DNA from: Mobula hypostoma
Taxonomy: Eukaryota
Reading direction: 5' to 3'
Length of the DNA: 64,000 bases
NCBI RefSeq assembly: GCF_963921235.1
Contig: NC_086097.1
Span: 25,918,001 to 25,982,000 of the forward strand
Shown: piece after piece, positions 19,301-63,398 of the stretch
How positions within the stretch are numbered: the stretch's first letter is position 1
How the letters are laid out: the number at the start of each line of letters is the position of its first letter
Translations under genes and position numbers: made by a program
Notes under the pieces: model-generated
What the model saw: only the letters and a program-made list of their open reading frames with translations
Told to the model about the DNA's origin: nothing
The model's database searches: none

Positions 19301-22300
19301 ATTTCTCTGCCTTCAATTTCTACGACAGACGACTGATTCGACTACGGCTTGATGGTGTGTCTACTTACCGTATAATCAGAATCAGGTTTATTTACACCGG
19401 CATGTGTTGTGAAATTTGTTAACTTAGCAGCAGCAGTACAATGCAATACATAATAATATCGAAGGAAAATAAATAATCAAGTAAATCAATTAAGGTATAT
19501 ATATATATGCACATTGAATAGATTAAAAATAGTGCAAAAACAAATATTTTTAAAAATGTACTTCTGATTTACAAATCTTTTGTTTTAGATGTGATTTGTA
19601 ATTTGGAAATCTTATACAAAATAAAAATTCTCTGAATGTTTTAAGAATGTGGTTTGAATTTAAACCTGTATCACTGAAAATAAATGAACTGTGTTTTAAA
19701 CTTCTTTGTTAGTTGGAAGTATCTTCTTGGTAGGGAGGGGGAATCCAGCTCAAATGGTGAGTATTGGCAGCTAAACTCGTTATGGAAGTTAAACAGGGAA
19801 GTGAACCAGACTTTGAAGATTGGGTAGTTACAGTATAAACTCCCTTTAGTGAGGATACCTGGAGCTACCTATACTGGATAGGGCTTAATGTCTTTGTTTG
19901 AGTTTTGAACTTCATGGTCAGCAATCTCAATACCATCACAGGAAATGGTGTCTTAAATAATACCAGTACCATAATCATTTCCTGACAACAGAGAATTCTA
20001 AGGAAGAAAGACCCTATTCAAAGATTATGACTTCCTGTTTGGAGATTCAAAGGGATATGTTAAACACTTCATACGGAATCCATTTTTAAAGGTTAACATT
20101 TAATTGACTATTTTTCAGAACTATGAGCTTAGAAAACATATTCTCCCTGTTAGTCTGGGTTCATGCGTTTTGAGGTGGATAACTAGGATAGATCACAGGG
20201 CTTCATACTCAATCTTTACATTACAACAGAAAAGGAAATCAGAAATTATGTAGTCTGGCAGTCCCATTGGCTGACCATTGTGCATTTCTCCAATGCAGCA
20301 TAGGGTAAATTACAAGCAGCCAAATCAATATATACTAAATTAAAATCAATACAATGGAAATCTGAGTATATGGATACCAATTACAGTGCACTTCAGAACA
20401 CAAATGAAGGCTAGCTCATCAACAACCTCAACATCAATAAGAATCAGAATCAGGTTTAATATCACTGGGCACGTCATGAAATTTGTTGTTCTGTGGCAGC
20501 AGTACATTGCAATACATAAAAAAATCTATAAATTACAATATTTATAGGAAGAAATCAAATAAATAGTGCAAAAAGAGAGCAAAAAAAAAAGTGTTTTCAT
20601 GGGGTCATTGCCAACTTAGAAATGTGATGGTGGAGGGCAAGAAGCTGTTCCTGAAACGCTGAGTGTGTCTTTAGGCTCTTGCACTGCCACCTGGATGGTA
20701 GCAATGAGAAGAGGGCATGTTCTGGCTGATGAGGGTCCTTAATGATTGGGTGCTGCCTTTTTGAGTCCTTCTCTGGTGTGAACAGCAAATCATAAGACAT
20801 AGAGCAGAATTAGGTCATTCGGCCCATCAAATCTGATCCTCCATTCCATCCTGGCTGATTCATTATCCCACTCAAACCTATTATCCTGCCTTTGCTTTGT
20901 AACCTTTGACACCTTGTATTATATCTTACGTCTGTCCCGTGTTACATCTATCCACAGTCAGCCATATGTCATCTATCAGATGTACACCAATGTAATATAT
21001 TACAGAGCATGATTTATATCAAAATTCCTACTTCGATCCATTTTCTTTTTTCTCTATCAAATTGTGAAGGTGTAAACCAGACTAGGAGAACAGTATCACA
21101 AGTAATTTGTGGCCCTCTGCATGAAAAACAGTCAATGGATTGGCTTTCATCCAGAGAATCTGGTTCCAAGCACTGTACAAGTCTGGGTAGGTATAAAAGC
21201 AGGCATGCCCTCTGCCAATATGGCAATCTCATTTGTAAAGGTTGTGGTATAACTTCTGTGGGAAATGGAAATAGTGTTGTGTAGTGCACTTCAAGTTATA
21301 ACAGTGGCATATTCTATTCAGAAAATGGAAAAACATTTCATTTGCATCATCTATGCCACAACTGTATTCCCATAATTGCAAGCAGGTTGTCCCTAATAAC
21401 ATATCTAGCCTTGACAAAAATAAATTACTGACATTTAAATACTACTGTTGAGATTGACCACAGCAAGATTAGAAATACCAGTGGCCATAATTTGAGTTAG
21501 ACTACACTGCAAAGCCAGCTGGTGGCGCAGTGACATCAGCGCCGGACTCCGGAGCAAAGGTTCCCGAGTTCAAATCCATTCCGGCGGCTCCTGGGCGCGC
21601 TTTCCATCCGTGCCAGGTTGAACATCAAGTTCGCAACTCAGCCTCGTAAAAAAAACTGCGCTGTGAGAAGGATGTGGGGGACCACTCACAGAATCTTTCT
21701 TCCAAGACAACCACTTGAAAAAGTGGTCGCCGAGGCTCTGGCAAAGTACGGCACACAAAAAAAAACACTGCAATGCTATTTTTCAAGAGCCACATCAAAA
21801 ATCCTAAACATGTTGACTCGTGAAAGGTTAATGGAAATGACACAGGTCTAATAAAGCTACCAAATCTTCTGGGGGAAGAACATCAACTAGTAAGACGAAA
21901 GCATCAACAGATCAGGCAACATCTGTGGAGAAACACAGTTAACAGTTTAGGTCAACGTTCTCATCAGAACTGCAAGTTAGAATAAAGAAGTTTTAAGCAA
22001 AAGAAGGGGGAGAGAAAGAAAGAATAGATGCTCAGATAGGTGTAATGCTGAGGGGTCATGCAGACAAGAAATAAAAAGTCAGCATAATAAAAAGTGCTAG
22101 TGGAAGTAGCAGGATCAGAGTAATCACCTAAAGTTTTGAATTAGAAGCTATATTCAGGAGACTGTAATGTGCCTGGTCAAAAGGCTGCTCTTTGGCATTA
22201 TGTTGAACTGGTACAGCAAAGGAATCAAGGCCAGAGAGACATAATGAAGCCAAGAACTAAAGTGAAAAGTGTTTTGAAGCTTGGGGTTACTCAATCTGCA

Positions 22301-25300
22301 TTTGGTCCCTCCAATGGAGCATAGCCTAAACTATAAGCAACCAATCCAATATATACTAAATTGAAAGCAATACAAGTAAACTGCTGTTTCCCCCACAGGG
22401 AATGAGGAGTGAGGAAGTTAAAATTGCAACTCCTGTCATGCATGGGACTACAATGAAGGAGAAACATGTGTTGCCTGTGATGAAAGAGCAAACCAGAGGA
22501 GAGAACAGTCCTTACGTGTCCCTTTTATTCACCATTTGCCATGGCTGAGAAATGCCTGTGGGCAAGCACCCAAAAGCTCCTTCCATTACTCTACATAGAT
22601 GAGCAAAGACCTGAACATGAAATCATTTTCTTAATCATGTTACAATTCGGCTGAGATTAAAAAGTCATTGCAAGGTATTAAGTGAAGAAGAAGAAGAAGA
22701 AAGCCTTTAACTCCGAATGGAGTCATCGGGATGCCGTCGTGACAGCGTTTTTTTAAGCAGGCTTTATTTTTATGAGGCCGAGTTGCTAGCTCGACGCTCA
22801 ACCCAGCACGGATGGGAAGCGTGTAAGGGAGTCGGCTGGATTTGAACTCGGGAGCCTGCGCTCCGAAGTCTGGCACTGATGCCACTACGCCACCAGCCGG
22901 CAAAGGTATTAAGTAATGCCAGAAAAAAAAGTGAGCACCCATGGGACTAGGAGTGAAACCTAATTTTATGACTTCTTAAATTTCAAGTTATTTTTATTAC
23001 CACTTGCCTACTTATTAATGGAAAGATCCCCACCGATGTTTATACTAGGAAGAACAAACCTCAGCTGAGTTTGTTGCTAAACCAATAGATGTTCTTACAA
23101 TCCTCAATGGAGCCACAATACTGTTGCAACCAAATAAACCCGAATAATTGCACAGGCTTTGTAATTATTGCAGTGGAAGTGAAATAATATTGCTGACACT
23201 TTTTTCTTGTTTGTATCCTGATATATAATTGTGAACCTAAATTACATTATAGCAGAAAAGAATATCACTTAAAATCTTGTAGAATCCAAAAAGAAAAAAA
23301 ACAAACATAATTGCAAGAAAATTGCATTATTGATGGCTAAATCAATCACTCATTTAGAATTATGGAAGGTAAACTTGAATTGCTTTGCAAAGAATTTCCT
23401 ACCTGACCAATAAAAAATTCAAATCAGAGCATCAATTTCATGTAATTCTTGCGTTTAATTAGCCAAAGCTGCAATGTCAAAATAACGCTGCCAAGATGAG
23501 AGAACTGATTATCACCAAAATGCAAATCAGGTTAAACTTTCATAGCATGTTCACTTTTCTATCTAGTTTTACTCTGAAACACGCATTGTTTTTTTAAATA
23601 AAAAACCTACCGTCTTTAATTCTATTAGAACTTGCTCATCCACTCCTTCATCGAGGAACTGTTCCCGCACATCATTAATTACGTCTTCAATCACTGATCT
23701 GTAGAGTTTAGGCTAAAGAAACAAAGCAAAATAAACAAGAGATTAAAGAGTTCATTTTTTGGTTATGGATATTACAGTGCTACTGAAATTAATTGCATGT
23801 TTTTCTAAAATATGTACCGTATGTTTTTCAAGATAACAGGATTTGCCACAGAGCAGTGGAGTGAATTATTAACAGATGAACCAGCCATACAAAGATAAAC
23901 AAACACTTAGTAATAAAAGGAAAACTTTGCATAGCCTCCATCTCCAAGGACCTTTGAAAATTCATCTTTCTCAGCAAATTTCAAAATTGAAAGAAAATAT
24001 CCTTCACTAGTTGGTTTCTTAAGCATTCAAAAGCCACCAGGACAGTGTAGTATTTATATTATCAATGAGCTTTTTGGTGTTCCTAGATGCAGTATAAGTT
24101 AGCATTCTGTACTGAAGTCTTCATCACCAACAGATAGCCATTGACAACACCTTTTGTCAGTTTTTCCCTGAAGATGTTAGGTATATGATTCCCTGTAAAG
24201 CACCCATCTCTATGGTATCTATAAAATGACAGTGCTTTGAGAGTATGGCTGGATTCATGATTATTAACAGACCATTTAAACAACTAGAGGTGAAGCAGTT
24301 TCATTCAAAGCTAATCTCTACATATACTAAGACATTTCCAATAGGACTTACAGAATAGTACTGTATCTACAAATAGAGCAGAGCGCCGATTTATCTATCC
24401 AACCACATCTCAGAGTTACTACATCTAAATGTAACAGCACCATCGTCTTTAAGCCAACTATAATTGATCTATTTGACTTACAGCAAGTACTAATGTTTGC
24501 CCACGTCCCACAACTGCACATCTACCACTCAAACTCTTCACATAAAATGAAAATTAATGTGGCTGTCATGCTGTATATGGATACATTGTGAATAAATTAT
24601 TTAGAATCCTAGGTTATTAGGTAGTTTATTTGTTTTATTAGCTTGATACATCAGAAAGCTATTGAGAGTAACATTTTAAATTATCCTGAACTCTCTTGAG
24701 ATTTGCTTCCCTCAATGCCATTCTCTGCTGTCAATTAAAAATGCTGGAGCAACTCAGAGGGTCAGGCAACATCAATGCGAACATTGAACAGTACATCACA
24801 GTGCCTTCAGCCCACAATGTTGTGCTGTACTGTTCAATGTTCGCCTTTGATGTTGCCTGACCCACGGATTACTCTAAAGTCAATCTAATGCTTCCATTCC
24901 AAACTGTCCTCCATTTTCTTGTAAGTCTCTCAAGTCCCTTATATGTCTCTAATACACCTGTCTTCATCACCACCCTTGGCAGTACGTTCCACGCACCCAC
25001 CACTCTCTCCATTAAAAAAACCCTCTGACATCCTTCAATCACCTTAAAATCATGCCTTCCCAGGCAGTCGTCCTTCAAAATGCTACTCAAGTTCTTCCAA
25101 CATTTTATGTGTTACTAAAGATTTCCATCAGTCCTTCTTGAGATTCTATGTCTGTTTACATTCATGATGGGGTCACTATCCTGCACTGAGTTTTGCACTG
25201 ATCCTTGATTCATGCTCAGCTGCTGCAATTGTCCAGGGATGGAGATGATTTCTACCGACTTACTACAAAACCAGAAAGCTTTTCTAGGAACTCCATATTG

Positions 25301-28300
25301 TCCACCCTGATGGGTGAAGTCTTTCATTGATTCTATCATGGTTTATGGATTTACTGAGTGTGCCTGCAAGAAAATGCACCTCTGGATTTTATATGCTGAC
25401 ATATGTACCTTGATGAAACATTGAACATAGGCATTTTATAGGCCCTTCGGCCCACAATGTTGTACCAACCATGTAACCTATTCAAGATGTATTGATAACA
25501 AATTTACTTTGAACTTCTGAATTTATGGATACATCGTGATCCTCCAGGCAGCCAACAGCTGAAAGGGTGTTGAAGTGTTAACCATAAACAAAGAATGCCA
25601 TTGATATGGGGAAGAAAATCAGATGAATGGGGTTCATTGTTAATTTCAATTAAATAGATTGAAAAAAAATAGCAGTAATTGTACAATGTACTTTTATGCC
25701 CACGCTGAGCCAGAAAGAGTCCTGAAGAGGTGACGACAAGACAAAAAGACATAGGAGAAAATTCAGGACATTCAGCCCATTGAGTATGCTACAACATTCC
25801 ATCATCGCTGAATTATTACCTCTCTCAATCCCATTCTCCCACCTTTTCCCCGTAACTTTTGACATCCTTACCTCTGCTTTAAATATACCCACAGCCATCT
25901 GTGGCAATGAATTCTATAGATTCACCACCCCCTGGCTAAAGAAATTCCTCATCTGTTCTAAAGAGACATCCCTCTATTATGAGGTTGTGTCCTTTGCTCC
26001 TAGACTCACCCACTATATGGAACATTCACTATCTGGGCTTTTTGATATTCGATAGGTTTCAATGAAATTACCCTCATTCTTCTAAAACTCCAGGAAGTAG
26101 AGGCCCAGAGCCATCAAACACTGCTCATATGATAACCCTTTCATTCCCAGAATCATTCTCATGAACCTCTACTGGACCCGTTCCAATACTATCACATTTT
26201 TAATGAGGTAAGGAGCCCAAAACTGCTCACAATACTCTACCCACAAGGATTCTACATCTTCTGATCCTACGTCACATCTTCTTAAGAATTTAGTTTCATT
26301 TTTTTTTTAAACCAACAGAGAAACAGCACTCCCTCTACCTACCTGCCTATCCTTTCGATAAAATATGCATCTTTGTACATTAACCTCCTATGATCTTCTT
26401 TCAGCCACGATTCAGTGATGCCCACATTGTACCTACCAATCTCTAACTGTGCTACAAGATCATCCACCTTATTCCGTATATTGTGTGTATTCAAGTATAA
26501 TACCTTCAGTGTTGTATTCATCACTTTTTGATTTTGCCCCCACATTATACTTCAACTCATCCCAATAACTGCAATTTTGCTCTTTCATCTGCTTATCTTC
26601 CTCACAGTCATATAACACACTGCACCTACTTGAATACCAACTGCCCCACTCTTGGCCCGATCAACTCCAGTTCCCATCCCCCTGCCAGGTTCACGAGAAT
26701 CATCCCAGGAATGGAAGGTTTAATGTATGAGGAACATTTGATGTTCTCTATTCACTGGAGTTTAGAAGAATGAGGGGAATCTCACTGAAAACTATCGAAT
26801 ATTGAAACGCCTAGATAGAGGAGACAGATGCTTCCTATCCTGGAGGAGTCTAGGACCAGAGGGTACAGCCTCAGAATAGAAGGACATTCCTTTAGAACAG
26901 AGATGAGGAGGAATTTCTTTTGCCAGTGGATTGTGAATCTGTGGAATTCGTTGCCAAGGACAGCTATGGAGGCCAAGTAATTGAAAGCGAACGTTATCAG
27001 ATTCATGATTAATAAAGGCGTCATAGAGGTTGTGGGTTGGGGAGCGGGGGGGGGTAAGATAAAAAATGAGACATAATGAATGGTGCAGACTCAATGGGTC
27101 ATATGGCCCACTGCTGATACTATGTCTTATTGTCAAACTGCTGGAGAAATTCAATGGGTCAAGAAGCATCACTATTTTGGAATCCCAATGCAGGGTCTTG
27201 ACCTGAAACGTTGACAATTCTTTTCCTCACACAGATGCTACTCAATGCTTTAAGATCCTCCGCAGTGTAGTATTTTTTAAACTGTCATGCCTCGATTAGT
27301 TTTGGTTCAAGTAATCAGCTGCCAATTAACATTTTAAATACCTGAACTTTCACAAAAGATGAAGACACAAGGAGAATTTGATGATGTGATTCCATCTATT
27401 GATAGGAAGTCAGTACTGCAACAAGTTAATGAGAAAGCTAACAGGCCAAGGTAAGGATACATAAGCATCAATACTACAGCATAGTAATTTCCCCAACCTA
27501 TTCCTGTGTCATTAAAAATTTACTTCCCTTAAACGTCTACCCAAATTTCCCTTGAAATCAGGGATCACTTCACCACCCTCAAAGGCAACAAGTTCCAGAT
27601 CATTACCATTTGCAGCATTTAAAAGGTTCTTCCTCAAATTCCTCTTCCACCCCTTGCCCAAAACCTTAAATCTGTGGCCCTAGATCCTGTATCGTCAGCT
27701 AATAGGAACAGCTTTTCTTTGCATACCTCATCTAAATGTGATTACGCTGGAGAGGCTGCAGAAACAAATTCACAGAAACAGAATGTTGCCAACAATGGAG
27801 GGTTTCAAAGTACATTATCAAAATATGTATACTGTACACAACCTTGAAATCCGTCTCCTTGTAGGCAGTCACAAAACAAAGAAACCCAATAGAGCCCATT
27901 AAAAAAGACCATCAAACACCCAATGTGCAAAAAAAACAAATTGTGCAAATAATAAAAGTAAGCAAATAACATTCAAAACTGAAGTTCACAGAAGTGAGTC
28001 GACAGCCAGGAAACCAGTCACAGCTATTGCAGAAGCCCATCAGTTGCAGCCCACAGCCTCAGTTCAGCGCAGAAATGAGTGAACTTCATAGAGCAGTGAG
28101 CTAAACACAGGCCTGTCCCTCTCCTCCACCCTCAACATTCTGGCCCAGCGCCTAGATCAGCCAAACCTCGGGTCATTACTCACTCTCAGATCCAGACCCT
28201 GCCACTTTGATATGTTCTTGGGCCTAGGCCATGCTGCCTCGGTTCGGCCCGTACCCAATCTACCCCGGTGCTTAAATCAGCTATGAGGAGAGATTGAAAA

Positions 28301-31300
28301 GGTCAGAGCTGTTTTCCTGGAGCACAGTAGGCTGAGGGGTGACCTTATGAAGGGTCAGAAAATTATGACAGGCATAGGTAGAGTAGATAGCTACTGTCTT
28401 TTATCCTCAGTCAGGGAAGACTCAAGTGAGTAGTTTTAAGGTGAGACAGGGAAGATTTAAAGGGGATCTGTTGGGCAAATTTTTCACATAGGAGGTGGTG
28501 ATTATATTGAACAAGCTCCAAGAGGACGGTACAATTATAATGTTTGAAACACATTTGGATAATGCTGAGGAAAGGTATGAGCCAAATCCAAGCAAATGGG
28601 ATTAGCATATACAAGCATGGATAAACTAAAATATAGAACGGTATGGTACAGTACAGGGCCTTCAGCCCACAATATTGTGCTAACCTACATAAACCTACTC
28701 CACTATCAATCATCCCACATAGCCCTCTATTTTTTCCTTTCATCCATGTGCCTATCTAAGAGTCTCTTAAATGCCCCCAACGCTGGGCTTCCCAACCTTT
28801 TTTTAATGCCATGAACCGATACCATTAAGCAAGGGGTCCATGGAATGTTAAATTTCCTCTGCACCCTCTCTAAAGCTTCTACATCTTTTCTAAAATGGGA
28901 ACAGAACTGAACATAATTCTCCAAGTGTAGTCTAACCAGGGTTTTAGAGAGTGGCAGCATTACCTCATGGATTTTGAACTCAATCCCCTGATAATGAAAG
29001 CCAACATGCTATGTACCTTCTTAACCACCCTAACAACTTGTGCAGTAACTATGGACCTGGGAGCATATGTTCCTCCACACTGCTAAGAATCCTGCCATTA
29101 ACTTTCCACTCCACCTTCAAGTTTGATTGTCCAAAGTGCATCATTTCACATTTTTTTTGGGATTGAACTCCATCTGCCACTTTCCTTGCCGATCTCTGCA
29201 TTCCGTCTATATCTTATTGTAACCCATGACAATTTTCTATACTATCGACACCTCCAAACTTTGTGTCATCTGCAGACTGACTAACCCACTCCTCTACTTA
29301 CCCATCCAAGGCAGTTACAATAATTACAGGGGTTCCAGAACAGATTAACATGGAACACCACTAGTCAGTGATCTCCAATACTTTGCCCACCACTGGCGTA
29401 AGATGAGTCGGGCAGAAGGACCTGTTTCATTGCTGTATAACTATCAATAACATAATGAGGATATGGTGTTATTTTCATTAGTTACATCAAGCATATAATT
29501 TAATCCACTCACTAATCTTTCACCCTCATAAATCTCACCAGTTAAAATCTGAGAGGTTTATACATAGAACCTAACCCTGTAGCAGGAGGAACATCAGCCA
29601 CTACATATGTTAATCTCACTGTTTGCATTCTTTCCTGAACAAAGGATGTCACCTTTGCCATTTTCCACTGTTCTGTCACCACCCTGAATCTAGGAAAACA
29701 GGAAGATTATAATTATCACCCTCACTTCCCTTGGCAACCTGGAATACAATTCAATTAGACCATGCAACATATCCACTAAACCTTGACAGTCTTTTTTAGT
29801 TAATCTTGCCTATCAAGTACATCTACAAACACAAGAGATTCTGCAGATGCTGTACATCAGGAGCAACAAAAGACAAAATGCTGAAGGAACTCAGCAAGTC
29901 AGGCAGTATCTATAAAGGGAATAAAGAGATGATGATTCTTCCACCATTTACATTACCACTGTGTTCTATTTTCTTCCTTAGTAAACATTGAGACAAAATA
30001 CTTTTTAAGTATACTACTAGCCTTACTCAATACCTCCAAATTTAGATCTCATTTATCCCTATCAAGTAGCGCCATACATCTAACCACCTACGTATTATTT
30101 AAATGCAGAAGTATTTCACTTCCTTTTTGAGAGATTGATATATATGTATACACACACACACACACTCTCTCTCTCTGAAATTCTGGACTGTAGAAAGAGA
30201 ATAAAATAAAAATGCACTAAAAGTGGGAAGCTCTCCAAGCAGCTAGGCCAACATTAATGTCTGAGCCATCATTTTCCAATCCTATTTCTCAACTGCAATC
30301 TCTTCTTGCTTATGAACTATTTCTGGCTGGAAAAAGGCTGTGTACTTAATGCACCAGTGAACCACAGCTAACCAGCAACATTCTCCTTTTAAGTTAATTT
30401 TTTTTAATTCCCCCAAGTCACATTGGTATTTTTCCACAAGGCTAATTTATACGGCAAGTTAGAACAGTACATCACAGCATTATTGGCACTTTGGCTGATG
30501 ATGATGTGCCAGCCTTTCAACCAACTCCATGATCAATCCAACCCCTCCCTCCCACACAGCCCTCTTTTGTTTCATCCATGAGCCTATTTAAGAATCTTAC
30601 AAATGTCCTTAATATATCTGTCTCTACCACCACCCATAGCAGACTGTGCATCTATAGAAGTTTATCGAAGTTTTGGTGACATGCCGAATCTACACAAACT
30701 TTTTTTTTGGCGTGTGAGTCTGTGCATTTGCGTGCGCCCGTGATGATGTCTTTTTCATGGCTTTTACAGGGGGGAGAGAGGGGGGAGAGGGGGGAGAGGG
30801 GGGGGAGAGAGGGGGAGAGAGGGGGGAGAGGGGGGGAGAGAGGGGGAGAGAGGGGGGAGAGAGGGGGGGAGAGGGGGGGAGAGAGGGGGAGAGAGGGGAG
30901 GAGGGGGGGAGAGGGGGAGAGAGGGGGGAGAGGGGGAGAGAGGGGGAGAGGGGGGAGAGAGGGGGAGAGGGGGGAGGGGGGGGAGAGGGGGGAGAGGGGG
31001 GAGAGGGGGGAGAGGGGGGAGAGGGGGGGAGAGGGAGACTGTGTGGTACGCCACTCCTCACACAGACATTTTCACAGTATTTTCCCTTTATTTTTACGAG
31101 GTTGAGTTGCGTTCTCGACACTCAATCCGGCACAGATGGAAAGCGTACTCGGGGGTGGACCCGACTAGTTTTGAACCCGGGAACCTCTGCTCCCAAGTCC
31201 AGCGCCGATGTCGCTGCGCCACCAGCCGGCCCTTCTACACAAACTTCTAAAAAAATAGAGGCACTGTTGTACCTTCTTTATCTACCTGTCCCAGGACAGA

Positions 31301-34300
31301 TCCTTTGATATGTTAATACAAAATAATTTAAAGCTATTAGTCCTCTCCACTTCTGTTCCCTAATGAGGTTCATGGACCTTGGCATTCTTTCTCCCGTTGT
31401 TAGTAATCAGCTTTTTGGTTTTGCTGACATTAAATGAGAGGTTGTTTGCACCATTCAACCAGATTTCCAATCTCCCTCCTATATGCCAATTTATCACCAA
31501 TACACAAATACAAAATCATTGTCAGACCAACTGACAGGTGATTGTAGGCTTGAGAGTGATACACGGTCAAATGCTGGTTCGGAAGCTTGATGGGCATGGG
31601 ATCTAGGGTTTCTGTACATCCTGCACTGGGCATGGACTGAACGGTGGGGGTCTTTGATAATGGATGCTGTTTTCTTGCGGCAGCGCTCCATGTAAATGTA
31701 CTCAGTGGTGGTGAGGGCTTTGCCTTTAATGGACTGGACTGTATTCACCACTTTCTGTAGCCTTTTCCATTCCTGGGCACTGATGGTTTCAGATGAGGCT
31801 ATGATGATCAATCCTGCCATCAGAGGCCCCAAGGTTCAACAACAGCTTCTCCCCCACTGCCATATAACCATATAACAATTACAGCACGGAAACAGGCCAT
31901 CTCAGCCCTTCTAGTCTGTGCTGAACTCTAACCCTAAATTAGTGCCACCGACCTGCACTCAGCCCATAACCCTCCATTCCTTTATATATCTAATAATTTA
32001 ACTTTAAGCGACAACATAGAACCTGCCTCAACCACTTCTGCTGGAAGCTCATTCCACACAGCCACCACTCTCTGAATAAAGAAGTTCCCCCTCAGGTTAC
32101 CCCTAAACTTTTGTCCTCTAACTCTCAACCCATGTCCTCTTGTTTGAATCTTCCCCACTCTCAATGGAAAAAGTCTAACCATGTCAACTCTGTCAATCTC
32201 CCTCATAGTTTTAAACTCCTCTTATCAAGTCCCCCCCCAACCTTCTACACTCCAAAGAATAAAGACCTAACTTGTTCAACCTTTCTCTGTAACTTAGGAG
32301 ATGAAACCCAGCCAACATTTTAGTAAACCTCCTCTGTACTCTCTCAATTTTATTGACATCTTTCCTATAATTCAGTGACCAGAACTGTACACAATACTCC
32401 AGATTTGGCCTTACCAATAAATTCAACATTACATCCCAACTCCTATACTCAATGTTCTGATTAATAAAGGCCTGCAGACCAAAAGCTTTCTTCACCACCC
32501 TATCCACATGAGATACCACCTTCAGAGAACCAAGCACCATTATTCCTAGATCCCTCTGTTCTACAGCATTCTTCAATGCCCTACCATTTACCATGTATGT
32601 CCTATTTTGATTAGCTCTACCAAAACGTAGCACCTCACATTTTTCAGCATTAAACTCCATCTGCCATCTTTCAGCCCACTCTTCTAACTGTCCTAAATCT
32701 CTCTTCAAGTTTTGTAAACCTACTTCATCATCCACAACACCACCTATCTTAGTATCATCTGCATACTTACTAATCCAATGTATCACCCCATCATCCAGAT
32801 CATTAATATATATTACAAACAACATTGGACCCAGTACAGATCCCTGAGGCACACCGCTACACACCGTCCTCCAATCTGACACACAGTTATCCACCACTAC
32901 TCTCTGGCATCTCCCATCTAGCCACTGCTGAATCCATTTTACTACTTCCATATTAATACCTAAACTAACCTTCCGTGTGGAACCTTGTCAAAGGCCTTAC
33001 TGAAGTCCATATAGACAACATCCACCATTTTACCCTCATCAACTTTCTTAGTAACCTCATCAAAAAATTCAATAAGATTTGACAAACATGACCTTCCTTG
33101 CACAAATCCATGTTGACTGTTCCTAATCAGACCCTGTCTATCCAGATAATTATATATACCATCTCTAAGAATACTTTCCATCAATTTATCCACCACTGAC
33201 ATCAAACTCACAGGCCGATAATTGCTAGGTTTACTCTTGGACCCCTTTTTAAACAATGGAACCACATGAGCAATACGCCAATCCTCCAGCACCATCCCTG
33301 TTTCTAATGACATTTGAAATATTTCTGTCAGAGCCCCTGCTATTTCTACACTAACTTACCTCAAGATCCTAGGGAATATCTTGTCCAGACCCGGAGACTT
33401 ATCCACTTTTATATTCCTTAAAAGTGCCAGTACTTCCTCTTCTATAATTGTCATACTTTCCATAACTACCCTACTTGTTTCCTTTACCCTACACAATTCA
33501 ATATCCTTCTCCTTAGTGAATACCGAAAAGAAATTGTTCAAAATCTCCCCCATCTCTTTTGGCTCCGCACATAACCGTCCACTCTGATTCTCCAAGGGAC
33601 CAATTTTATCCCTCACTATCCTTTTGCCAATAACATAACTGTAGAAACCCTTCGGATTATTTTCACCTTACTTGCCAAAGCAGCCTCGTATCTTCTTTTA
33701 GCTTTTCTAATTTCTTTCCTAAGATTCTTTTTAATTCTTTATATTCTTTATATTCCTCGAGTACTTCATTAACTCCAAGCTGCCTATAGTTATTGAAGAT
33801 CCAAGCAACACGAAGTCCTGTTAGTCCTGACGAAGGGTCTCGGCCTGAAACATCGACTGCACCTCTTCCTAGAGATGCTGCCTGGCCTGCTGCGTTCACC
33901 AGCAACTTTTATGTGTGTTGCTTGAATTTCCAGCATCTGCAGAATTCCTGTTGTTTTTGTTATTGAAGATCCCTCTCTTTTTCTGAACCAAGTTTCTAAT
34001 ATCTCTTGAAAACTATGGCTCTCTCTCAAACGTTTAACCTTTCCTTTCAACCTAACAGGAACATAAAGATTTTGTACTCTCAAAATTTCACCTTTAAATA
34101 ACCTCTATTTCTCTGTTACATCCTTCCCATAGAACAAATTTTCCCAATCCACTCCTTCTAAATCCTTTTGCATCTCCTCAAAGTTAGCCTTTCTCCAACC
34201 CAAAAAAAAGATCGCAATCCTAGGTCCAGTCCTGTCCTCCTCCATAATTACACTGAAACTAATTGTATTGTGATCACTAGACCCAAAGTGCTCCCCAACA

Positions 34301-40300: not shown

Positions 40301-43300
40301 CTAACAAGGCATTTTTGCCCATAGAACTGACGCTCACAGGATGTTTTTGTTTTCCCTCACCATTCTCTGTAAACTCTAGAGACTGCAGTGCATGAAAATC
40401 CCAGGAGATCGGCAGTTTCTGAGATACTCAAACCACTCCATCTGCCACCAATCATTCCACAGTCAAAGTCATTTAGCTGACGTTTCTTCCCATTCTGATG
40501 TTTGGTCTAAACAACAACTAAACATCTTGACCATGTCTCCAACCTGATGGCATGAACATTGACTTCTCTAACTTCCGCTAAGGCCCCACCTCCCCCTCAT
40601 TTTTATGCACATTCTTTCTCTCACTCTCCTTTTTCTCCCTCTGTCCCTCTGAATATACCTCTTGCCCATCCTCTGGGTCCCCCCCCCCTTGTCTTTCTTC
40701 CCGGACATCCTGTCCCATGATCCTCTCGTATCCCCTTTTGCCTATCACCGGTCCAGCTCTTGGCTCTATCCCTCCCCCTCCTGTCTTCTCCTATCACTTT
40801 GGATCTCCCTCTCCCCCTCCAACTTTCAAATCCCTTACTCACTCTTCCTTCAGTTAGTCCTGACGAAGGGTCTCGGCCTGAAACGTCGACTGCAATTCTT
40901 CCTACAGATGCTGCTTGGTCTGCTGCGTTCACCAGCAACTTTGATGTGTGTTGCTTGAATTTCCAGCATCTGCAGAATTCCTGTTGTTTGACCATGTCTG
41001 TATGCTTTTATGCACTGAATTGCTGTCATGTGATTGGCTGATTAGATGTTTGCATCAACTAGTTGTACCTAACAAAGTAGCCACTGAATGTAGATACACC
41101 ACTAATCCCAAACAGAAATGAAAATCTGTAGTTGTTAGAGCAAACATAAATACTTGAATTCAATTTGTTTCCCCGACTCTCTCAGCACCATACCTCCCCT
41201 ACCTTTCCAAACTACCTCCTCTCTAAGATACCTCTATCCTCCTCTTGCTTCTCTCTCCTTTACCAACTCAATTTCATTTTTCTTCAGACCAATCATATTG
41301 CTCTCTATCCATTATTTATCACTTATGCACCCGATTTCCCACAATAGAAAAGCTTTTAAGACACAAAATAATCTGCAGATGCTGGGGTCAAAGCAACACT
41401 CACAACACGCTGGAGGAACTCAGCAGGTCAGGCAGCATCAGTGAAAACGTCGACCGATCTTTTCCACTGATGCTGCCCGACCTGCTGAGTTCCTCCAGTG
41501 TGTTGTGAGAAAAGCTTTTAAGAACTATCCTCTTTTTGTCCACATTTTGAATTGAGACCCTTCATCAGGACTAAAAAGGAAGGGGAAGTGGTCAGAATAA
41601 GAAAATCAACAAGGGGCCGACTGGACAGAACAACTGATCAAGCACGGCCACATCTACTGGCAGATCACAAGCATCACACCAAACGAAATCTGGAATTGCA
41701 TACATGGTGTGGAGGAGGAGAATGGACAGCAAAAGTAAGGGCTGCCTGATGATTCATGTTACAATGTGGACCATGAAGACTAGCAGATAGCCATAAGCAG
41801 CAGCAGCAACATCACATTGTCACATCTGCTCCTTGACCCATGAATGCAAGTTTTTAAAAGGTTAAAGATTAGAAACATAGAAACATAGAAAATAGGTGCA
41901 GGAGTAGGCCATTCGGCCCTTCGAGCCTGCACCGCCATTTATTATGATCATGGCTGATCATCCAACTCAGAACCCAGCCTTCCCTCCATACCCCCTGACC
42001 CCTGTAGCCACAAGGGCCATATCTAACTTCCTTTTAAACATAGCTAATGAACTGGCCTCAACAGTTTGCTGTGGCAGAGAATTCCACAGATTCACCACTC
42101 TGTGTGAAGAAGTTTTTCCTAACCTCGGTCCTAAAAGGCTTCCCCTCTATCCTCAAACTGTGACCCCTCGTTCTAGACCTCCCCAACATCGGGAACAATC
42201 TTCCCACATCTAGCCTGTCCAATCCCTTTAGGATCTTATACGTTTCAATCAGATCCCCCCTCAATCTTCTAAATTCCAATGAGTACAAGCCCAGTTCATC
42301 CAGTCTTTCTTCATATGAAAGACCTGCCATCCCAGGAATCAATCTGGTGAACCTTCTTTGTACTCCCTCTATGGCAAAGATGTCTTTCCTCAGATTAGGG
42401 GACCAAAACTGCACACAATACTCCAGGTGTGGTCTCACCAAGGCCTTGTACAACTGCAGTAGTACCTCCCTGCTCCTGTACTCGAATCCTCTCGCTATAA
42501 ATGCCAGCATACCGTTCGCCTTTTTCACCGCCTGCTGTACCTGCATGCCCACTTTCAATGACTGGTGTATAATGACACCCAGGTCTTGTTGCACCTCCCC
42601 TTTTCCTAATCGGCCACCATTCAGATAATAATCTGTTTTCCTATTTTTGCCACCAAAGTGGATAACTTCACATTTATCCACATTAAATTGCATCTGCCAT
42701 GAGTTTGCCCACTCACCCAACCTATCCAAGTCACCCTGCATCCTCTTAGCATCCTCCTCACTGCTAACACTGCCACCCAGCTTTGTGTCATCCGCAAACT
42801 TGGAGATGCTGCATTTAATTCCCTCATCCAAGTCATTAATATATATTGTAAACAACTGGGGTCCCAGCACTGAGCCTTGCGGTACCCCACTAGTCACCGC
42901 CTGCCATTCTGAAAAGGTCCCGTTTATTCCCACTCTTTGCTTCCTGTCTGCTAACCAATTCTCCACCCACACCAATACCTTACCCCCAATACCGTGTGCT
43001 TTAAGTTTGCACACTAATCTCCTGTGTGGGACCTTGTCAAAAGCCTTTTGAAAATCCAAATATACCACATCCACTGGTTCTCCCCTATCCACTCTACTAG
43101 TTACATCCTCAAAAAATTCTATGAGATTCGTCAGACATGATTTTCCTTTCACAAATCCATGCTGACTTTGTCCGATCATTTCACCGCTTTCCAAATGTGC
43201 TGTTATCACATCCTTGATAACTGACTCCAGCAGTTTCCCCACCACCGACGTTAGGCTAACCGGCCTATAATTCCCCGGTTTCTCGCTCCCTCCTTTTTTA

Positions 43301-46300
43301 AAAAGTGGGGTTACATTAGCCACCCTCCAATCCTCAGGAACTAGTCCAGAATCTAACGAGTTTTGAAAAATTATCACTAATGCATCCACTATTTCTTGGG
43401 CCACTTCCTTAAGCACTCTGGGATGCAGACCATCTGGCCCTGGGGATTTATCTGCCTTCAATCCCTTCAATTTACCTAACACCACTTCCCTACTAACATG
43501 TATTTCGCTCAGTTCCTCCATCTCACTGGACCCTCTGTCCCTTACTATTTCTGGAAGATTATTTATGTCCTCCTTAGTGAAGACAGAACCAAAGTAATTA
43601 TTCAATTGGTCTGCCATGTCCTTGCTCCCCATAATCAATTCACCTGTTTCTGTTTGCAGGGGACCTACATTTGTCTTTATCAGTCTTTTCCTTTTTACAT
43701 ATCTATAAAAGCTTTTACAGTCCGTTTTTATGTTCTCTGCCAGTTTTCTCTCATAATCTTTTTTCCCCTTCCTAATTAAGCCCTTTGTCCTCCTCTGCTG
43801 AACTCTGAATTTCTCCCAGTCCTCAGGTGAGCCACTTTCTCTGGCTAATTTGTATGCTACTTCTTTGGAATTGATACTATCCCTAATTTCTCTTGTCAGC
43901 CACGGGTGCACTACCTTCCTTGATTTATTCTTTTGCCAAACTGGGATGAACAATTGTTGTAGTTCATCCATGCAACCTTTAAATGCCTGCCATTGCATAT
44001 CCACCGTCAATCCTTTAAGTGTCATTTGCCAGTCTATCTTAGCTAATTCACGACTCATACCTTCAAAGTTACCCCTCTTTAAGTTCAGAACCTTTGTTTC
44101 TGAATTAACTACGTCACTCTCCATGTTAATGAAGAATTCCACCATATTATGGTCACTCTTACCCAAGGGGCCTCTCACGACAAGATCGCTAATTAACCCT
44201 TCCTCATTGCTCAAAACCCAGTCCAGAATAGCCTGCTCTCTAGTCGGTTCCTCGACATGTTGGTTCAAAAAACCATCCCGCATACATTCCAAGAAATCCT
44301 CTTCCTCAGCACCTTTACCAATTTGGTTCACCCAGTCTACATGTAGATTGAAGTCACCCATTATAACTGCTGTTCCTTTATTGCACACATTTCTAATTTC
44401 CTGTTTAATACCATCTCCGACCTCACTACTACTGTTAGGTGGCCTGTACACAACTCCCACCAGCGTCTTCTGCCCCTTAGTGTTACGCAGCTCTACCCAT
44501 ATCGATTCCACATCTTACTTTTATTTGCCACATATGCAACATACGATGAAATGCACTGCCTTTTTATTTTATTGCACTCACATGATGAAGGCATCACTGA
44601 AAACGTCCCTCTTTATTGCCCATCCCAAACTGCAGGTAAACTGAAGAGTTAAGATTCTGGGATTTTGGCAGATTTCCTTCCATGAATGTGTTTTTGGAAG
44701 GTTATGGTTCTTTTAGATGAGAAGCTATACTGAATCACAGTCTTCTGCATAATGATCGTCAGAAATCAATACAAATGTTCCTTTTTCTTCCAAGGAAGCT
44801 TGACTATATTCTTGAATCTTTTCCTGTCCACCTGGTAATCTCTTCCCATGACAAATCTTGGAATAATTCACATCATATTAAATCCATTTATGGAGTTTAA
44901 GGTCAGACATGTGAATGACATGGCCTGTCCAACAGAACCATCTAAGTATAACTAGGAACTCAACATTAAGAATGTTGGCCAAGGAGGAAACACTGTGGTA
45001 TCCTTCTATAGGTTTGAATAGCCTATCCTAAGAAATCCTAGTGTCAGGAGAACATAGGAGTGCAGGAATGACAAAGAAGATTCTGAAGGTGATTGACAAG
45101 GTGGGCTCTTTCTTAAAATGGGATTATCTGGAACCAGGGGATGTTGTGACAAAATAAGGAGTCACTCCTTTCCAACGGGCAAGAGAAGGAATCTGGAATT
45201 CTCTGCCCCAGAAAGCTATACGGAGGCAGAATTCTTGTACATATACTATTCAGGGAATAACAGACATTTTATTCCACGGAATAAAAGGACGTTGGAAAGT
45301 GAAGTTGAAGCCAATAACAGCATGAACAGCTTTTTCAAGGAGCAACTTAGTTTCTCTTGCTTCTTGTATTCTTTTATAAACTTCAGGTAAATAAACTTCT
45401 CTTTTCCCCTCCTCCACTCTCAAACTTCCCATTACCCACACCTACCTTACTTTGGTTTCATCACCCCATTCCCTATATTCCATGGATATCAGATTCCAGC
45501 TTGTTTAGCCTTTTTCCCCTTCCAACTATCACCACCCAGCTTCTCCCATCATTCCTATTTACCCCCCCACCTCCTCCGCTAGGATTTGCCTATCATCTGT
45601 CAGCTGATGCTTCCTCCACCACCCCCCCAGTTCCTTTTATTCTGGCTTCTGCCCCCTTTCTTTCCAGTCCTGATGAAGAGTCTTGAAGTATTTCCCACCA
45701 CATGCAGTCTGACCCAGAGTTCCTCTGGCATTCTGTATGTGTTGCAGCAGAATCAGAGCAGATATCTTCAAGAAAGGGGACACCTCCAGTTGCAGTTTCT
45801 GCTATCTGCCACAGGGAAAGTCTGCATAGCAGTCCTCCTCTAACCCCACCAGTGGCTAAAAGGTTGCTCCCTGAATCACAATACAAGTTCCAAAAAAAAG
45901 TCATGATCTTCACTATGTGAAAATTGCATTAACACCATAAAACATAGGAGCAGAATTAGACTATTCAGCCATCAAGTCTACTCTGCCATTTGATCACAGC
46001 CAATTTATTTTCCCTCTCAACATCATTCTCCTGCCTTCTCCCCATAACCTTTGACATCTTTACTAATCAAGAACCTATCAACCTCTGAGTTAAAGATACC
46101 CAATGACTTGGCCTCCACAGTCATCTGTGGCAATGAATTCTACAGATTTGCCACCCTCTGGCTAAAGAAATTCCTTCTCATTTCTGTGGACATCCTTCTA
46201 TTTTCAGGCCGTGCCCTCTGGTCTTATACTCTCCCACTATTTGAAGCATCTTTTCCATCTAGAACATTCAATATTCAGTAGGTTTCAATGAAATTCCCCT

Positions 46301-52260: not shown

Positions 52261-52769
52261 TTGCTTGAGGGGTTCAGATTTACGTTCATTTATTTTTGTT
52301 TGCACGATTAAATGAGGGTGAAGTTGCATTTGCTACAGTGTTTTTTTCCCCTCATACTTTCAAGACGTCCTGAAGCACCTTACAATGAATGTGCTGATTG
52401 TGATTTTTTTTTAAAAACTGCAAACGACGGGTAATCTTAAATAAAAAGTTAAAATAATAATCCACATTGTTAATAATAAATCTGAATAATAAATCTTAAT
52501 AATAAATCTGCCTGGTTGTTTGCACTATTATTCCTGCAAACAATAGTGTGGTCACAACACAAGGTGCTGTAGCAACTCTGCAGGTCAGGCAGCTTCTATG
52601 AAGAAATGCCGGCTGTCCTTTTCCCTCCATAGATGCTGCCTGACCTGCTGAGTTCTTCCAGTATCTTGGGTCTGGCTTCAGATTCCAGCAGTCCTTTCTA
52701 TTTTGGTAATGTGGTCACGACCAAATAACCCAAGTAATCACAAGCTGTGCCTGAGAACTAACAAAGTGC

Positions 52770-55700
52770 ATCATGTTGTGTGAGCTGCCTTTGAGTTTTT
52801 TCGTGCACCCAGCTCCCTGGGCGATGCGAGTCTACACTGGACTCCGCCCAAAATATCACAAGCCCACCCTCCCCGCCATTTGTAGTATCTACAGGAGATG
52901 CTTCCTCAAGGAGGTGACATTCACCAAAGATCCGCACTATCCAGGCCATGCCATCTTCTTGCAGCCATCAGCAAGCAGGAGGTACAGAAACCCCAGTTTC
53001 CACACCAATAACAGCTACTTCAAATCCTGAACCAACTGGCACAACCCTAATCACCACCTCAGTATAGCAACACTATGACCACATTGCACTGAAAGAACTT
53101 CTTTTACTCTAATTGTCTTTACTTGTAAAAATTGTGATTCATTTAAGTTTTTCTTGTGAGTGCTGTTTATTTGATGCTGCATGCCTGTGACGATACCGCA
53201 AGTAAGTTTTCCCATGGCAACTGTGCATACATGTACTTGTATACATGACAATAAACTTGACTTTGACATTAACTTCACATGACAGCAATACAGTAAAATA
53301 CATAGTTATTAAAGCTGCGATAAATATATTAAAAAATAAATAAATAGTGCAGAAAGAAAGCAAAATAGTCAGATAGTGTCCACGGACCGTTCAAAAATCT
53401 GATGGCAGAGGGGAAGAAGTTGTTCCTATAACACTGAGTGTGCATCTTCAGGCTCCTATACCTCCTGCTGGATGGTAGTAATAAGAAGAGGGACTGTCCT
53501 CGATGGCAAGAGTCTTTAGGGATTGATGCCACCCTTTTGAGGCAGATCCTTTTGAAGACGTCTTCGATGGTAGGAAGGGTTGCGCCCATCGTGAGTTGGT
53601 TCAGTCTACACCCCTCTGTGGTATCTGGCAATCCTACCAGTGATGCCTCCAGTCAGAAAGCTCTCTACTGTACATCTACATAAAGATATTTGCCAGTCTT
53701 TGGTAACAAACCAAATCTCCTCATGCAATATAGCCCCTGGTGTGCCTTCTTCAATGATTGCATCAATATGTTGGGCCCAGAATAGATCGCCTGAGATGCT
53801 GGCACCCAGGAAGCTGAAGCTGCTCACCCTTTCCACTGCTGCTCTGGTTTGTGTTCTTCTGACTTTCTCTTCTTGAAGTCCGCATTCAATTCCTTGATCT
53901 TGCCGATGCTGAATGCAAGGTTGTTGTTGTGAAACCACTCAAACAGTTCAAGTTCAAATTCAAATTCAAGTTCCGTTTACTGTCATTCAACTGTATACAT
54001 GAATACCACCAAACAAAACAAGGTTCCTCTGGACCAAGTGCACAATACAATACATACAACTCCCACACACAACTCATGAGTAATACCACCACAAATGAAT
54101 TAACAAGTAATAAAGGGCATTTATGAGTCAAGTTAAAAAGTAAACAGTATAACGCTTCATACATGAGATACCAGGGTGGTGGCAGGGAGTTCAATAGTCT
54201 CACGGCCTGGGGGAAGGGGGGGGAGGGCAGGGGGTGGCTGGGAAGAAGCTGTTCTTGTCCTAATGTTATGATACCTCCTGCCTGATGGTAGGGGTCTAAG
54301 AGATTGTTGGATGGATGGGAGGGATCATTGACAAAGCTAAGGGTCCTGCATACACTGTACGCTGTACTCCAGATAAATATCTCTGATGGGTGGAAGAGAC
54401 ACCCCATTCTGCCCCCCCCCAACAAATAATCCTCTCAGCAGTCCTCACAACCCTTTGTGTGGTTTTGTGGTCAGATGCCTTGCAGTCCCATACCAGACAG
54501 TGATGCAGCTGGTCAGGACACCCTCAATGCTCCTCCTGCAAAAATTGCTTAGAGTGGAGGCGGGGGGCGGGTGCGGTGCTCACTATCTTCAAGAAGATGA
54601 AAGGTTACTGTGTTTTCTTGACCAAAGATGTGGTGTCAAGAGACCAGGTGAGATTATCCATTACGTGCACTTGCAGAAACTTGGTGCTCCTAATTCTCTA
54701 CAAGGAGGAGTGTGTTTGTGCAATGGGGGGGGGGTGGTCAGCCTGCATCTTCAAGTCCACAGTCACCCCTTCAGTCTTGTTCACATTGAGACTCAAGTTG
54801 TTGTGCTTGCACCGTTCTACCATCTGCTTTACTTCCTCTCTGTACGCCGTCTCATCAGTGTTGTTGGTAAGGCCAACCACTGTCATCGGCAAACTTGATG
54901 ATTTGGTTTGAGCCAAATCTGGCCGTCCAGTTGTGCATCAGCACCGTGAACAGCAGTGGGCTGCGTGCACAGCCCCTGGGGCACCAGTGCTCAGTGTGAT
55001 GGAGCTAGAGATGTCCCTCAGCCAATCTGCCTCACTCCTGTACACCTCAGCATCTCTAATTGCCCTTTGCCAACTGAGTGGCTGTGTTGACCATTTCAGA
55101 TTCAACCACCTCCTTCTCCGCCTTGCAGAATGGTAATGACTACATGGGTTTATACAACTGTAAGCATGCACCAGTCTTTCCCTTTCTCCCATGGTCCACT
55201 CTCTTCTCCTGCCAGATTCCTTCTTCTTCAGCCCTTTACTTTTCCCACCTATCACCATGCAGTGTCTCATTTTATTCCCCCACCTCCCCGGGTCACCCAC
55301 CTTCCCCTCCACCTGGTCTCACCTATCACCTGCCAACTTATACTCCATCCTTCCCATCCCACCTTCCTATTCTGGCTTCTACCCTATTCCTTTCCAGTCT
55401 AGGTGAAAGTCTCAGACTGAAACATCAACTGTTCATTTCCCTCCATAGATGCTGCCTGACCTTGTTGACTTCCTAAAGCATTTTGTGTGTTATATATGAT
55501 AGTCATTGTTAAGACTAGTTACATATATAAATGCCAAACTACTCCCAATTTTAAAAAAACCACTACAGCTGTGGTGGGGTTTGAACTGCAGTTTCTAGAT
55601 TGTTCCTCCTGGCCGCTGGATTACTATTTAAGTAATTTAACCGTTGTGTGCAAGCACTCTTCAATGGGACATCTTCCATTTTGTTCAGCGCTAGCTCAGG

Positions 55701-56660: not shown

Positions 56661-58064
56661 CCCGCTTGACGAGGTAGAAAACCAGCATTCACATTGATGC
56701 TGCATATCCTATGTGTTGGAGAAAGCAGTATTCAGTTTAAAAACTGAAGTTGCATTTATGGAATTTCTCATAAATCATCAGGTGACATTTCGAGGAATAA
56801 CATTCTATGGCATGCAGTGTTTATTTAGACGAGGAAGATATTGATCAAATCTGGTAACACCTTCAATACTCACAAACACAAGAGATTCAGCAGATGCTGG
56901 AAGTCTTGACCAACGCATTCAAAAAGCTGGAGGATCTAGGTAAGTCAGGCAGTATATATGGGGAGGGGTCCTGATGAAGGGTCTCAGCCCAAAACATAGA
57001 TTGTTTATCACCGCCATGCTGCCCAACTTACCTAGATTCTTCAGCATTTTCTATGTTGCTCAACTCAATTACTTTTGAGGAGGAATTTCTTTAGCCGGAG
57101 GTTGGTGAATCTGTGAAATTCATTGTCACAGACAACTGTGGGGGCCAAGTCACTGGGTATTTTTAAAAGCAGAAGTTGATAGGCAAGGGTATCAAAGCTT
57201 ACAAGGGAGAAGGCTAGAAAATAGGGTTGAGAAGGATAAGAAATCAGTCATGGTGGAATGGCACAACAGATTCGATGAACCAAATGGCCTGATTCTGTTC
57301 CTATGTCTTGTAGTCTTATTACTGTACTGGTAATCCCGATGAAGGGTTTCAGCCTGAAATGTTGATATTTCCTTACCTACATCTCTCTCCACACCCCCCC
57401 CCACCCCCCACAACATCTCCGCAGATACTGTTCAACTTACTGAGTTCCTCCAGCAGGTTGCTTGTCGTTCCAGATTCTAACGTCTGCAGACTCCAGCACT
57501 GGTATTGTCAGGTCCCCGCTCATCTCTCTCCAGCTTCCGTCTCACCTTAAACACAAGAGACTCTGCAGACGCCGGCGATCCAGAACAACACACACAGAAT
57601 GCTGGGGGAACTCTGCAGGTCAGGCAGCATCTGTGCAGAGGAATGAACAGTCGACATTTTGGGCCAAGGCCTATCATTAGGATGGGATAGGAAGGGGAAA
57701 GAAGCCAGAATATCTCCACCCCCAACCCCCCAAACCGGCTCTGGTTCTTGTCTACTCGACCTATCACCCACCTGGTTCTGTCTCTTTACTCGATTCGTCC
57801 CACTCCCCCAGGTGACACAAGTCAAATCAAGGGTTTATTGGCATGTGTACAAGAGCAGTGAGGCACAGATACATGAAAACCTGCTTATTGCAGCATCACA
57901 GTCACATGGGTTCACACCGAATACAAATTAATCATAAATAATTGAAGTCTGCCTAGCCCCCTTTGCCTCTTCCTGTCCATCTACTGGCCCCTATCGCACC
58001 CCTCCCATTACACCATCTTTATACCAGCTGTCTTCCCAACTCATCACTGACTTTGCTTTAGGCC

Positions 58065-62375: not shown

Positions 62376-63038
62376 TTGCTGCCAGGTCTGACATATTTTA
62401 GCTCTCAGATATTTGAGAAACTGAATTTATTAAACTAACAGTTAAAAAATAGTTGCAATCTCAAATCATACAAAGGAGCTACAACCCTTTTCCATGGAAA
62501 ACTCAAACCTGTTTATGCAATTTCCTTCTCTGGCCACTCTTAAAATAGAATTGCAAGATGATCTAATTGTATATCTGATCATTTGAAACAACCGCACATT
62601 GATAGGGAATTTTGGTTTGAGATCTGCTGGAGATGCATTTTCCAGACTGGGTGGCGGATCCATTTAGGGTGAATATGAGTGATGTTGACACCACATTGCA
62701 AGAATGTCTCATGGGGCTGCAGAGTGATACAACAGCTAAATCAAAATTCAAACACAGCAAACAAAATTTCTGGATAACTAGTGATATTCAAAATAAGTTT
62801 CCACAGCTCTGGGAGAAAGCAAAGTTGTTTTTAATTGGATTCCCCACCTCTTATCCAGTTGAATATGGTTTTAGTGAAGCATTTCTCTTGCTATCAAAAG
62901 CTTATAACCATCTTGATGTTGTGAAAAGAGGTGATCTTCGATTATCTTTAACTAAATTGCAACCAGATATTCTAAAACACGCAAGTTTGCATCAGTCACA
63001 AGGATCTCACTAAATACTCAAACTAACAATATTATGCA

Positions 63039-63398
63039 ACGCACATCAAAGTCGCTGGTGAACACAGCAGGCCAGGCAGCATCTCTAGGAAGAGGTACAG
63101 TCGACATTTCGGGCCAAGACCCTTCATCAGGACTAACTGAAAGAAGAGCTAGAAAGAGATTTGAAAGTGGGAGGGGGAGGAGGAGGGGGAGATCCAAAAT
63201 GATAGGAGAAGACAGGAGGGGGAGGGATAGAGCTAAGAGCTGGACAGGTGATTGGCAAAAGGAGATACAAGAAGATCATGGGACAGGAGGTCCGGGGAGA
63301 AAGAAAAGGGGGGGGGGAAGCCCAGAGGATGGGCAAGGGGTATAGTGAGAGGGACAGAGGGAGAAAAAGGAGAGAGAAGAAGAATGTGTGCATATTAT
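63039..63398 (-). mobile_element. Penelope-derived insertion nested in a hAT element
   Basis: Reverse complement closely matches 40610-40950; probable TSD tattatgca at 63030-63038 and 63399-63407. Confidence 0.7.
63099..63134 (-). ncRNA. Minimal hammerhead ribozyme motif (stem III CG>TG)
   Basis: Minus strand AGTC-CTGATGA-AGGGTCTTGGCCC-GAAA-TG-TC-GACT. Confidence 0.65.

Follow-up and report, generated by a model that had tools for sequence, protein, structure and literature searches.

We conclude with considerable confidence that a minimal hammerhead motif at 40856-40891 (+) lies in the pseudo-LTR of an endonuclease-bearing Penelope-like element (PLE), probably of the Neptune type, that the surrounding stretch (40539-40989) is a dead, 5′-truncated retrocopy, and that the locus is most likely inert. 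Coordinates are those of the window, a stretch of 64,000 nucleotides of Mobula hypostoma contig NC_086097.1. Papers are cited by PMC or bioRxiv number.

Detection and structure of the hammerhead motif

The original prediction had described a complete type I hammerhead core at 40856-40891, and the same 36 nt are present there on the plus strand. Using a minimal type I descriptor (core, helix II, a helix I with three or more pairs, and U-H), we found 3 matches in the 64-kb window (33827+, 40860+, 63130−), exactly the three loci named beforehand, vs a mean of 0.01 (max 1) in 200 dinucleotide shuffles. The three loci are related copies and thus count as one independent event, but even a single match was seen in only 2/200 shuffles, and a palindromic match in 0/200. 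A chance match could be argued from the bare CUGANGA...GAAA core, which is not enriched in the window (9 found vs 6.8 expected), and from a 44-mer containing the motif, which folds no better than its shuffles (z = −0.51); set against the descriptor counts, it is barely credible. Judged by its letters, the motif is genuine. It agrees with the PLE consensus published in 2014 in its U-rich 5′ flank, bulge, G...C helix II and palindromic 15.2/16.2. An Rfam scan of the window, a check suggested beforehand, returned no hammerhead model among 6 matches at E≤1. The predicted parts of the motif are as follows.

40856..40891 (+): minimal type I hammerhead, predicted cut after C40887
40855-59/40888-92 (+): helix I, 5 pairs (descriptor)
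40860-66 (+): 5′ part of the core, then a bulged A (descriptor, consensus)
40868-71/40876-79 (+): helix II, 4 pairs (descriptor)
40883-86 (+): helix III, palindromic

C17 falls on C40887, the position predicted for the cut, and the ACGT palindrome proposed for stem III is perfect at 40856. The 11 invariant core bases (C3-A9, G12-A15.1, U16.1, H17) are intact in 3/19 core-bearing segments, 40856 included. Two further copies, 33823-33858 and 63099-63134, had been called core-intact; this holds for their 11 core bases and fails for the helix III palindrome, which among core-intact copies is perfect at 40856 only, with a C-A mismatch at 33823 and a U-G wobble at 63134.

Helix II had been drawn in an AGG/CCT register, which we replace. 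Across 19 aligned copies the A-U/G-C/G-C register is paired in 62% of cells, its first pair failing in 10/18, vs 79% (first pair failing in 5/18) for a bulged-A register with G10.1-C/U11.1. The 40856 copy has G-U at 10.1/11.1, C stands at 11.1 in 10/18 copies, and C replaces T at position 40879 in 18-40% of contig depth in four sequencing runs. C at 40879 is tolerated by G10.1 and not by A, which favours the bulged-A register; we prefer it also because of its higher pairing and its agreement with the published consensus.

Changes cluster at CpG sites, with C11.1, G12, 15.2, 16.2, C17 and G1.1 each altered in about half of the copies (G12 in 9/18). This is the substitution pattern of neutral CpG decay in copies that are dead, and it speaks neither for nor against the fold. 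Helix covariation, a check also put forward earlier, was not above shuffles across the 19 copies of this one genome (228/500 reach the paired fraction); because the copies are dead and decaying at CpG sites, its lack is uninformative and no refutation.

A nearest-neighbour model that leaves out magnesium and tertiary contacts gives the active-type dimer −11.5 kcal/mol, which makes it far less stable than the best dimer (−30.3) or a pair of monomers (−22.0). In published work, minimal hammerheads show poor cleavage even when dimeric (PMC4209133), and the Anolis PLE hammerhead needs the element's protein and is dispensable for insertion in vitro (PMC11167929).

The repeat family and its link to Penelope-like elements

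With boundaries drawn by hand, the family occupies 21 loci and 4,286 bases, 6.7% of the window, and 17/21 loci carry the core, in 19 segments. All 11 decayed copies listed in the original prediction were recovered, together with further segments at 12479, 17642, 17797, 21965 and 57684. Young copies (n = 3) have 87-95% identity to the 40539 copy, and the remaining loci ~70-87% over shorter stretches. Public contigs matching the family number 7,031, 9,814, 33 and 765 records in four sequencing runs, and contig loose ends with mixed flanks lie behind 40989/40990 in 3/4 runs. The loci and their parts are listed here, a dot standing in place of a single strand.

40539..40989 (+): 5′-truncated young-subfamily copy, with ORF end, pyrimidine-rich spacer, hammerhead, downstream region and tail
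40527..40538 (+): 12-bp target-site duplication, left copy
40988..40999 (+): 12-bp target-site duplication, right copy
40537..40581 (+): ORF end, last 14 codons and stop; probably from a Neptune-like GIY-YIG endonuclease
40828..40857 (+): pyrimidine tract with YAG, a candidate 3′ splice acceptor or initiator by its sequence; helix I 5′ strand
40953..40989 (+): optional tail of ~35-40 nt, missing in the 63036 copy
33803..33958 (+): young short copy starting at the hammerhead, a 9-nt inverted piece before it; 14-bp target duplication; inside a CR1-like LINE; helix III no longer palindromic
63036..63391 (−): young copy without tail, with an intact core, G10.1-C11.1 retained and U-G in helix III; 7-bp duplication
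1625..1790 (−): old tailed copy with a decayed core
3745..3861 (.): inverted tail fused to an arm whose start is the hammerhead
4510..4945 (−): long old copy opening with an ORF-end-like stretch and GT donor-like site, followed by spacer, hammerhead and tail
12344..12524 (.): head-to-head pair, helix I the start of both arms
17517..17742 (.): head-to-head pair, helix I the start of both arms
17793..17920 (+): old copy from helix I, 155 nt after the preceding plus-strand arm
21904..21995 (−): strongly decayed copy
24736..24873 (.): core-less inverted pair that matches weakly and perhaps comes from a related family
27135..27259 (.): inverted arm joined to a helix-I-starting arm
29825..29939 (−): core-less copy with tail
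41354..41518 (.): hairpin copy without the 5′ half of the core; left-arm tail; terminal 16-bp direct repeat (by eye)
41537..41602 (−): old fragment, pyrimidine tract and hammerhead
45386..45760 (+): long old copy, GT donor-like site at the ORF stop; 3′ half of hammerhead deleted
52555..52690 (.): hairpin copy without the 5′ half of the core
55175..55505 (+): long old copy without tail
56873..57061 (.): inverted arm with tail, joined to a helix-I-starting arm
57325..57493 (+): old copy from helix I
57545..57712 (−): old copy with tail

The hairpin copies (41419-41495, 52570-52657) give weak Rfam matches to mir-1791 and Plastid-psbJ-4; such copies could pass for small-RNA precursors or be a source of them.

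An ORF end, taken to be PLE-type, had been noticed at the start of the 40539 copy, and 14 codons and a stop (40537..40581, +), Neptune-like by eye, do open the copy. The hammerhead core lies 279 nt past the stop at 40581, that is, in the pseudo-LTR downstream of the stop. In run X10, 4 contigs share a loose end (agreement 0.72) that, translated by hand, adds 10 further upstream codons in frame and free of stops. The ORF end matches the end of the Neptune-1_Ac endonuclease at 7/17 positions, ungapped and by eye, without E-value (Fig. S2, PMC8557442); the Penelope/Poseidon rows of that figure are shorter than Neptune-1_Ac at the endonuclease end. The link to a PLE ORF thus comprises 14 window codons and one 30-letter contig consensus, compared by eye, and the Neptune clade assignment, drawn from one short stretch, is probable.

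Insertion marks point the same way. Target duplications measure 12 bp in the 40539 copy, 14 bp in the 33803 copy and 7 bp in the 63036 copy, and contigs of 2/4 runs pass through the flanking repeat with no insert, 10-12 of their letters agreeing with either side. Among old loci, a script found no target duplication in 6/7 tried; at one of these six, the 41354 hairpin, a 16-bp repeat is seen by eye just outside the offsets tried. Nine of the 21 loci are inverted, with the tail on one arm in 6, perhaps on both in 1 and on none in 2; in 2 of the 6 one-arm-tail loci the other arm is shortened anyway. Counted from C3, the copies end at about +82 to +95 or +127 to +133, making the last 35-40 nt optional. 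Inverted arms and an optional tail are described PLE marks (PMC8557442, PMC3846280, PMC11167929); the tail of the Anolis element spans the distance separating two internal sites at which reverse transcription starts (PMC11167929). We read the repeat as a PLE end, which agrees with its ORF end, target duplications, inverted arms and optional tail.

We found no PLE reverse transcriptase (RT) in the window, where 10 ORF-piece motif patterns gave 2 matches, only 40543 being relevant. Relatives were sought by pattern scan in viral sequences (0), metagenomes (0 and 1) and prokaryote genomes (0); the sole metagenome match (L001) was rejected as chance, as it falls within a bacterial ORF of 569 aa. 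A search of the supplement of PMC8557442 for the exact ORF-end motifs found none. A 106-aa pseudo-LTR frame has no Pfam match. Among 25 candidates of a protein search with the open pseudo-LTR frame were 2 predicted proteins labelled Mobula (P0001, P0002), neither with RT or endonuclease. Both are Mobula gene models with the pseudo-LTR as a coding exon; both matches end at the tail start, and that of P0002 begins at the candidate acceptor.

The window is rich in CR1-like LINEs, and this, with the missing PLE RT, would suit a repeat derived from the 3′ untranslated part of some other LINE (CR1, L2), its hammerhead-like string being incidental. We consider this very unlikely, as the ORF end resembles Neptune endonucleases, head-to-head arms with a one-sided tail are PLE marks, and the 33803 copy breaks a CR1-like ORF, with its own duplication.

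Several other features lie in the window. An open 818-aa LINE ORF2 piece with endonuclease and RT domains (Pfam) at 42058-44514 (−) belongs to a young copy that we take to be CR1-like; we assigned CR1-like and L2 labels from ORF translations and Pfam matches. Other CR1-like copies are at 12516-15902 (+) and 32000-35470 (−). An integrase fragment (Integrase_H2C2, rve) at 59690-60256 (−) is probably from an LTR retrotransposon, nested long inverted repeats at 9027-9392 (arms of 64, 54 and 18 nt) are probably a DNA transposon derivative, and a 130-aa ORF piece at 62621-63013 (+), without a Pfam match, presumably represents the end of a hAT-type transposase. A 165-bp tandem repeat in two copies (36134-36473) stands in a stretch with raised CpG. 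A short palindromic repeat family (3250-3317, 2762-2787, 40097-40164, 41060-41100) has weak Rfam mir-9256 matches below gathering score and resembles a terminal piece of a miniature inverted-repeat DNA transposon, which suggests that the mir-9256 family may be repeat-derived.

Host gene context and comparison with known elements

GTF2A1 exons on the minus strand match TFIIA subunit 1 (E 9.8e-13 and 2.6e-15); further exons lie near 23700 and 1335, and a candidate first exon at 51895. The window spans GTF2A1 at 1335-51895 (−), with an intron 1 of ~28 kb filled with repeats, and both glutamine-rich exons have Q runs longer than the human chain. The 40856 and 33823 copies are within intron 1, antisense to the gene, so that the host pre-mRNA holds their reverse complement. 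That 40856 is the only copy here with both core and palindrome intact, and lies in this intron, might suggest its retention for a role in cutting or regulating the GTF2A1 transcript or an antisense RNA. The copy is on the strand opposite to GTF2A1, its integrity is accounted for by its young age (95% identity to the 33820 copy), and old copies lose core bases such as G12 (9/18), leaving such a host function highly improbable. The solitary, antisense 40856 copy is probably inert.

Hammerheads in PLE pseudo-LTRs have been known as a class since 2014 (PMC4209133). The metazoan minimal hammerheads of that set (Cervera and de la Pena 2014) are like those here in their type I core, bulge before G10.1, palindromic 15.2/16.2, absence of loop III and U-rich 5′ flank, and in being mostly dispersed single motifs from truncated elements; the 4-bp helix II here is at the short end of the set, and U11.1 is common in the young subfamily. 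The two supplement files of that paper that we searched hold no shark, skate or Callorhinchus rows. Neptune PLEs (Craig et al. 2021, PMC8557442, Fig. S2) share the I-F-R-L then P-x-G-L/M-N spacing before the stop, the inverted arms and the optional tail; they have RT, a cysteine linker and a whole endonuclease, of which the family here shows the ORF end. Naiad endonucleases look similar but are N-terminal and come without canonical hammerheads (PMC8557442).

The Anolis Poseidon element PAc (Frangieh et al. 2024, PMC11167929) shares a pseudo-LTR hammerhead, two 3′ ends one tail apart and an uncut motif in its copies, but belongs to a different clade and has an ORF that starts at helix II; ribozyme terms were not found in the supplements of that paper that were searched. 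In Drosophila virilis Penelope a proven 75-nt intron ends at the helix I 5′ strand (PMC2377424; PMC4209133), the place where the family here has its pyrimidine tract and AG; the GT-AG candidate here is 270-285 nt. A literature search returned no title on a stingray or Mobula family of such a PLE, which may well be catalogued in Repbase or Dfam; the family may also be among those listed in a 2026 retrozyme preprint (bioRxiv 10.64898/2026.07.22.740005).

Start points of the copies at helix I

Upstream of the core, 8/19 segments match other long copies (identity 0.72-0.84) and 11/19 are at background (0.36-0.56; random 95th percentile 0.56). Setting aside from these 11 the 21967 segment, a possible diverged long copy, 10/19 core-bearing segments start 1-8 nt upstream of C3 (placed by eye), and both arms start there in two head-to-head pairs. 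Compared with an exponential of the observed mean, this clustering has P = 2e-6, or 7e-5 with head-to-head pairs counted once, for an interval picked after seeing the data and a search centred on the motif. In run X1 an 18-contig loose end with mixed flanks lies just before 40857. Two tail-only pieces aside, arms without the core start at about +20 to +50 and do not pile up sharply at the cut (+28); the starts of the 24736 pair and of 29939 could be near the cut. Old copies at 1788, 41602 and 57712 (n = 3) make up a small second group of 5′ starts, 30-37 nt ahead of the core and close to a possible branch point.

The common start point is a pyrimidine tract plus AG, resembling a splice acceptor or initiator, and not the cleavage site. 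Two of the 3 copies reaching the ORF end, the 40539 copy being the exception, have a GT donor-like site at the stop and hence a putative GT-AG intron of 270-285 nt, and in three runs a single contig links 40561-40569 with 40856 across unread letters.

Tentatively, the 5′ edge of the hammerhead, rather than its cut site, could be a fixed boundary of PLE retrocopies, a full-length PLE shedding SINE-like ribozyme cassettes of 90-135 nt. The RNA may begin at helix I (a start site or a processed 3′ splice site), with internally primed reverse transcription in the 5′ pseudo-LTR running off its end, or the enzyme may drop off once the new cDNA folds into helix I ahead of the pyrimidine tract; start site, splice-related end and enzyme drop-off may each apply, and the data fit all three alike.

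The shared start place (10/19 core-bearing segments) would also be expected if the short copies were a separate, non-autonomous retrozyme- or SINE-like element with its own ~135-nt transcript, possibly circular, borrowing the PLE enzyme. One decayed head-to-tail pair 155 nt apart (17641/17793) is consistent with this, as is the 2026 preprint, which derives animal retrozymes from PLE pseudo-LTRs and reports them in its single chondrichthyan (bioRxiv 10.64898/2026.07.22.740005). Non-LTR retrozymes (PMC7229834; bioRxiv 10.64898/2026.07.22.740005) and the short copies are alike in being short and non-coding, with a type I hammerhead and kinship with PLE pseudo-LTRs. Described retrozymes, however, are tandem repeats with canonical hammerheads (PMC7229834), whereas the ribozyme here is minimal and the hammerhead unit is absent from the 25 tandem-repeat rows of this window; ribozyme-circularised units would begin at the cut (+28 from C3), and the copies begin ~30 nt upstream, away from it. 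Long and short copies have the same two 3′ ends, forming a nested series that shares PLE-type 3′ ends. A separate retrozyme is therefore unlikely, and the original prediction keeps its ribozyme-bearing PLE end but loses its retrozyme-like spread, no tandem array occurring among the 25 rows.

For the PLE itself, other elements of the group suggest that the protein would nick DNA and start reverse transcription inside the RNA at two sites one tail-length apart; two such internal starts would explain ends with and without the tail. In an active tandem element, two pseudo-LTR hammerheads could join by way of their palindromic helix III and cleave after C17, presumably weakly and, as in other PLEs, as dimers or with the element's protein, and core-carrying copies would be made from uncut RNA. 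The 40856 motif, with no nearby partner and antisense in GTF2A1 intron 1, most likely does nothing.

This locus adds a very abundant ray-type family (~7% of the window), unnamed in the literature searched, to the PLEs with pseudo-LTR hammerheads. A fixed boundary at helix I, if true, would account for solo minimal hammerheads in their thousands with no need of a separate element, and the ribozyme fold would have a role besides cutting. If ends cluster at helix I genome-wide, the inserted RNA would be uncut, and the ribozyme region would set the 5′ end or the enzyme stop. The start pattern bears on the purpose of the PLE hammerhead.
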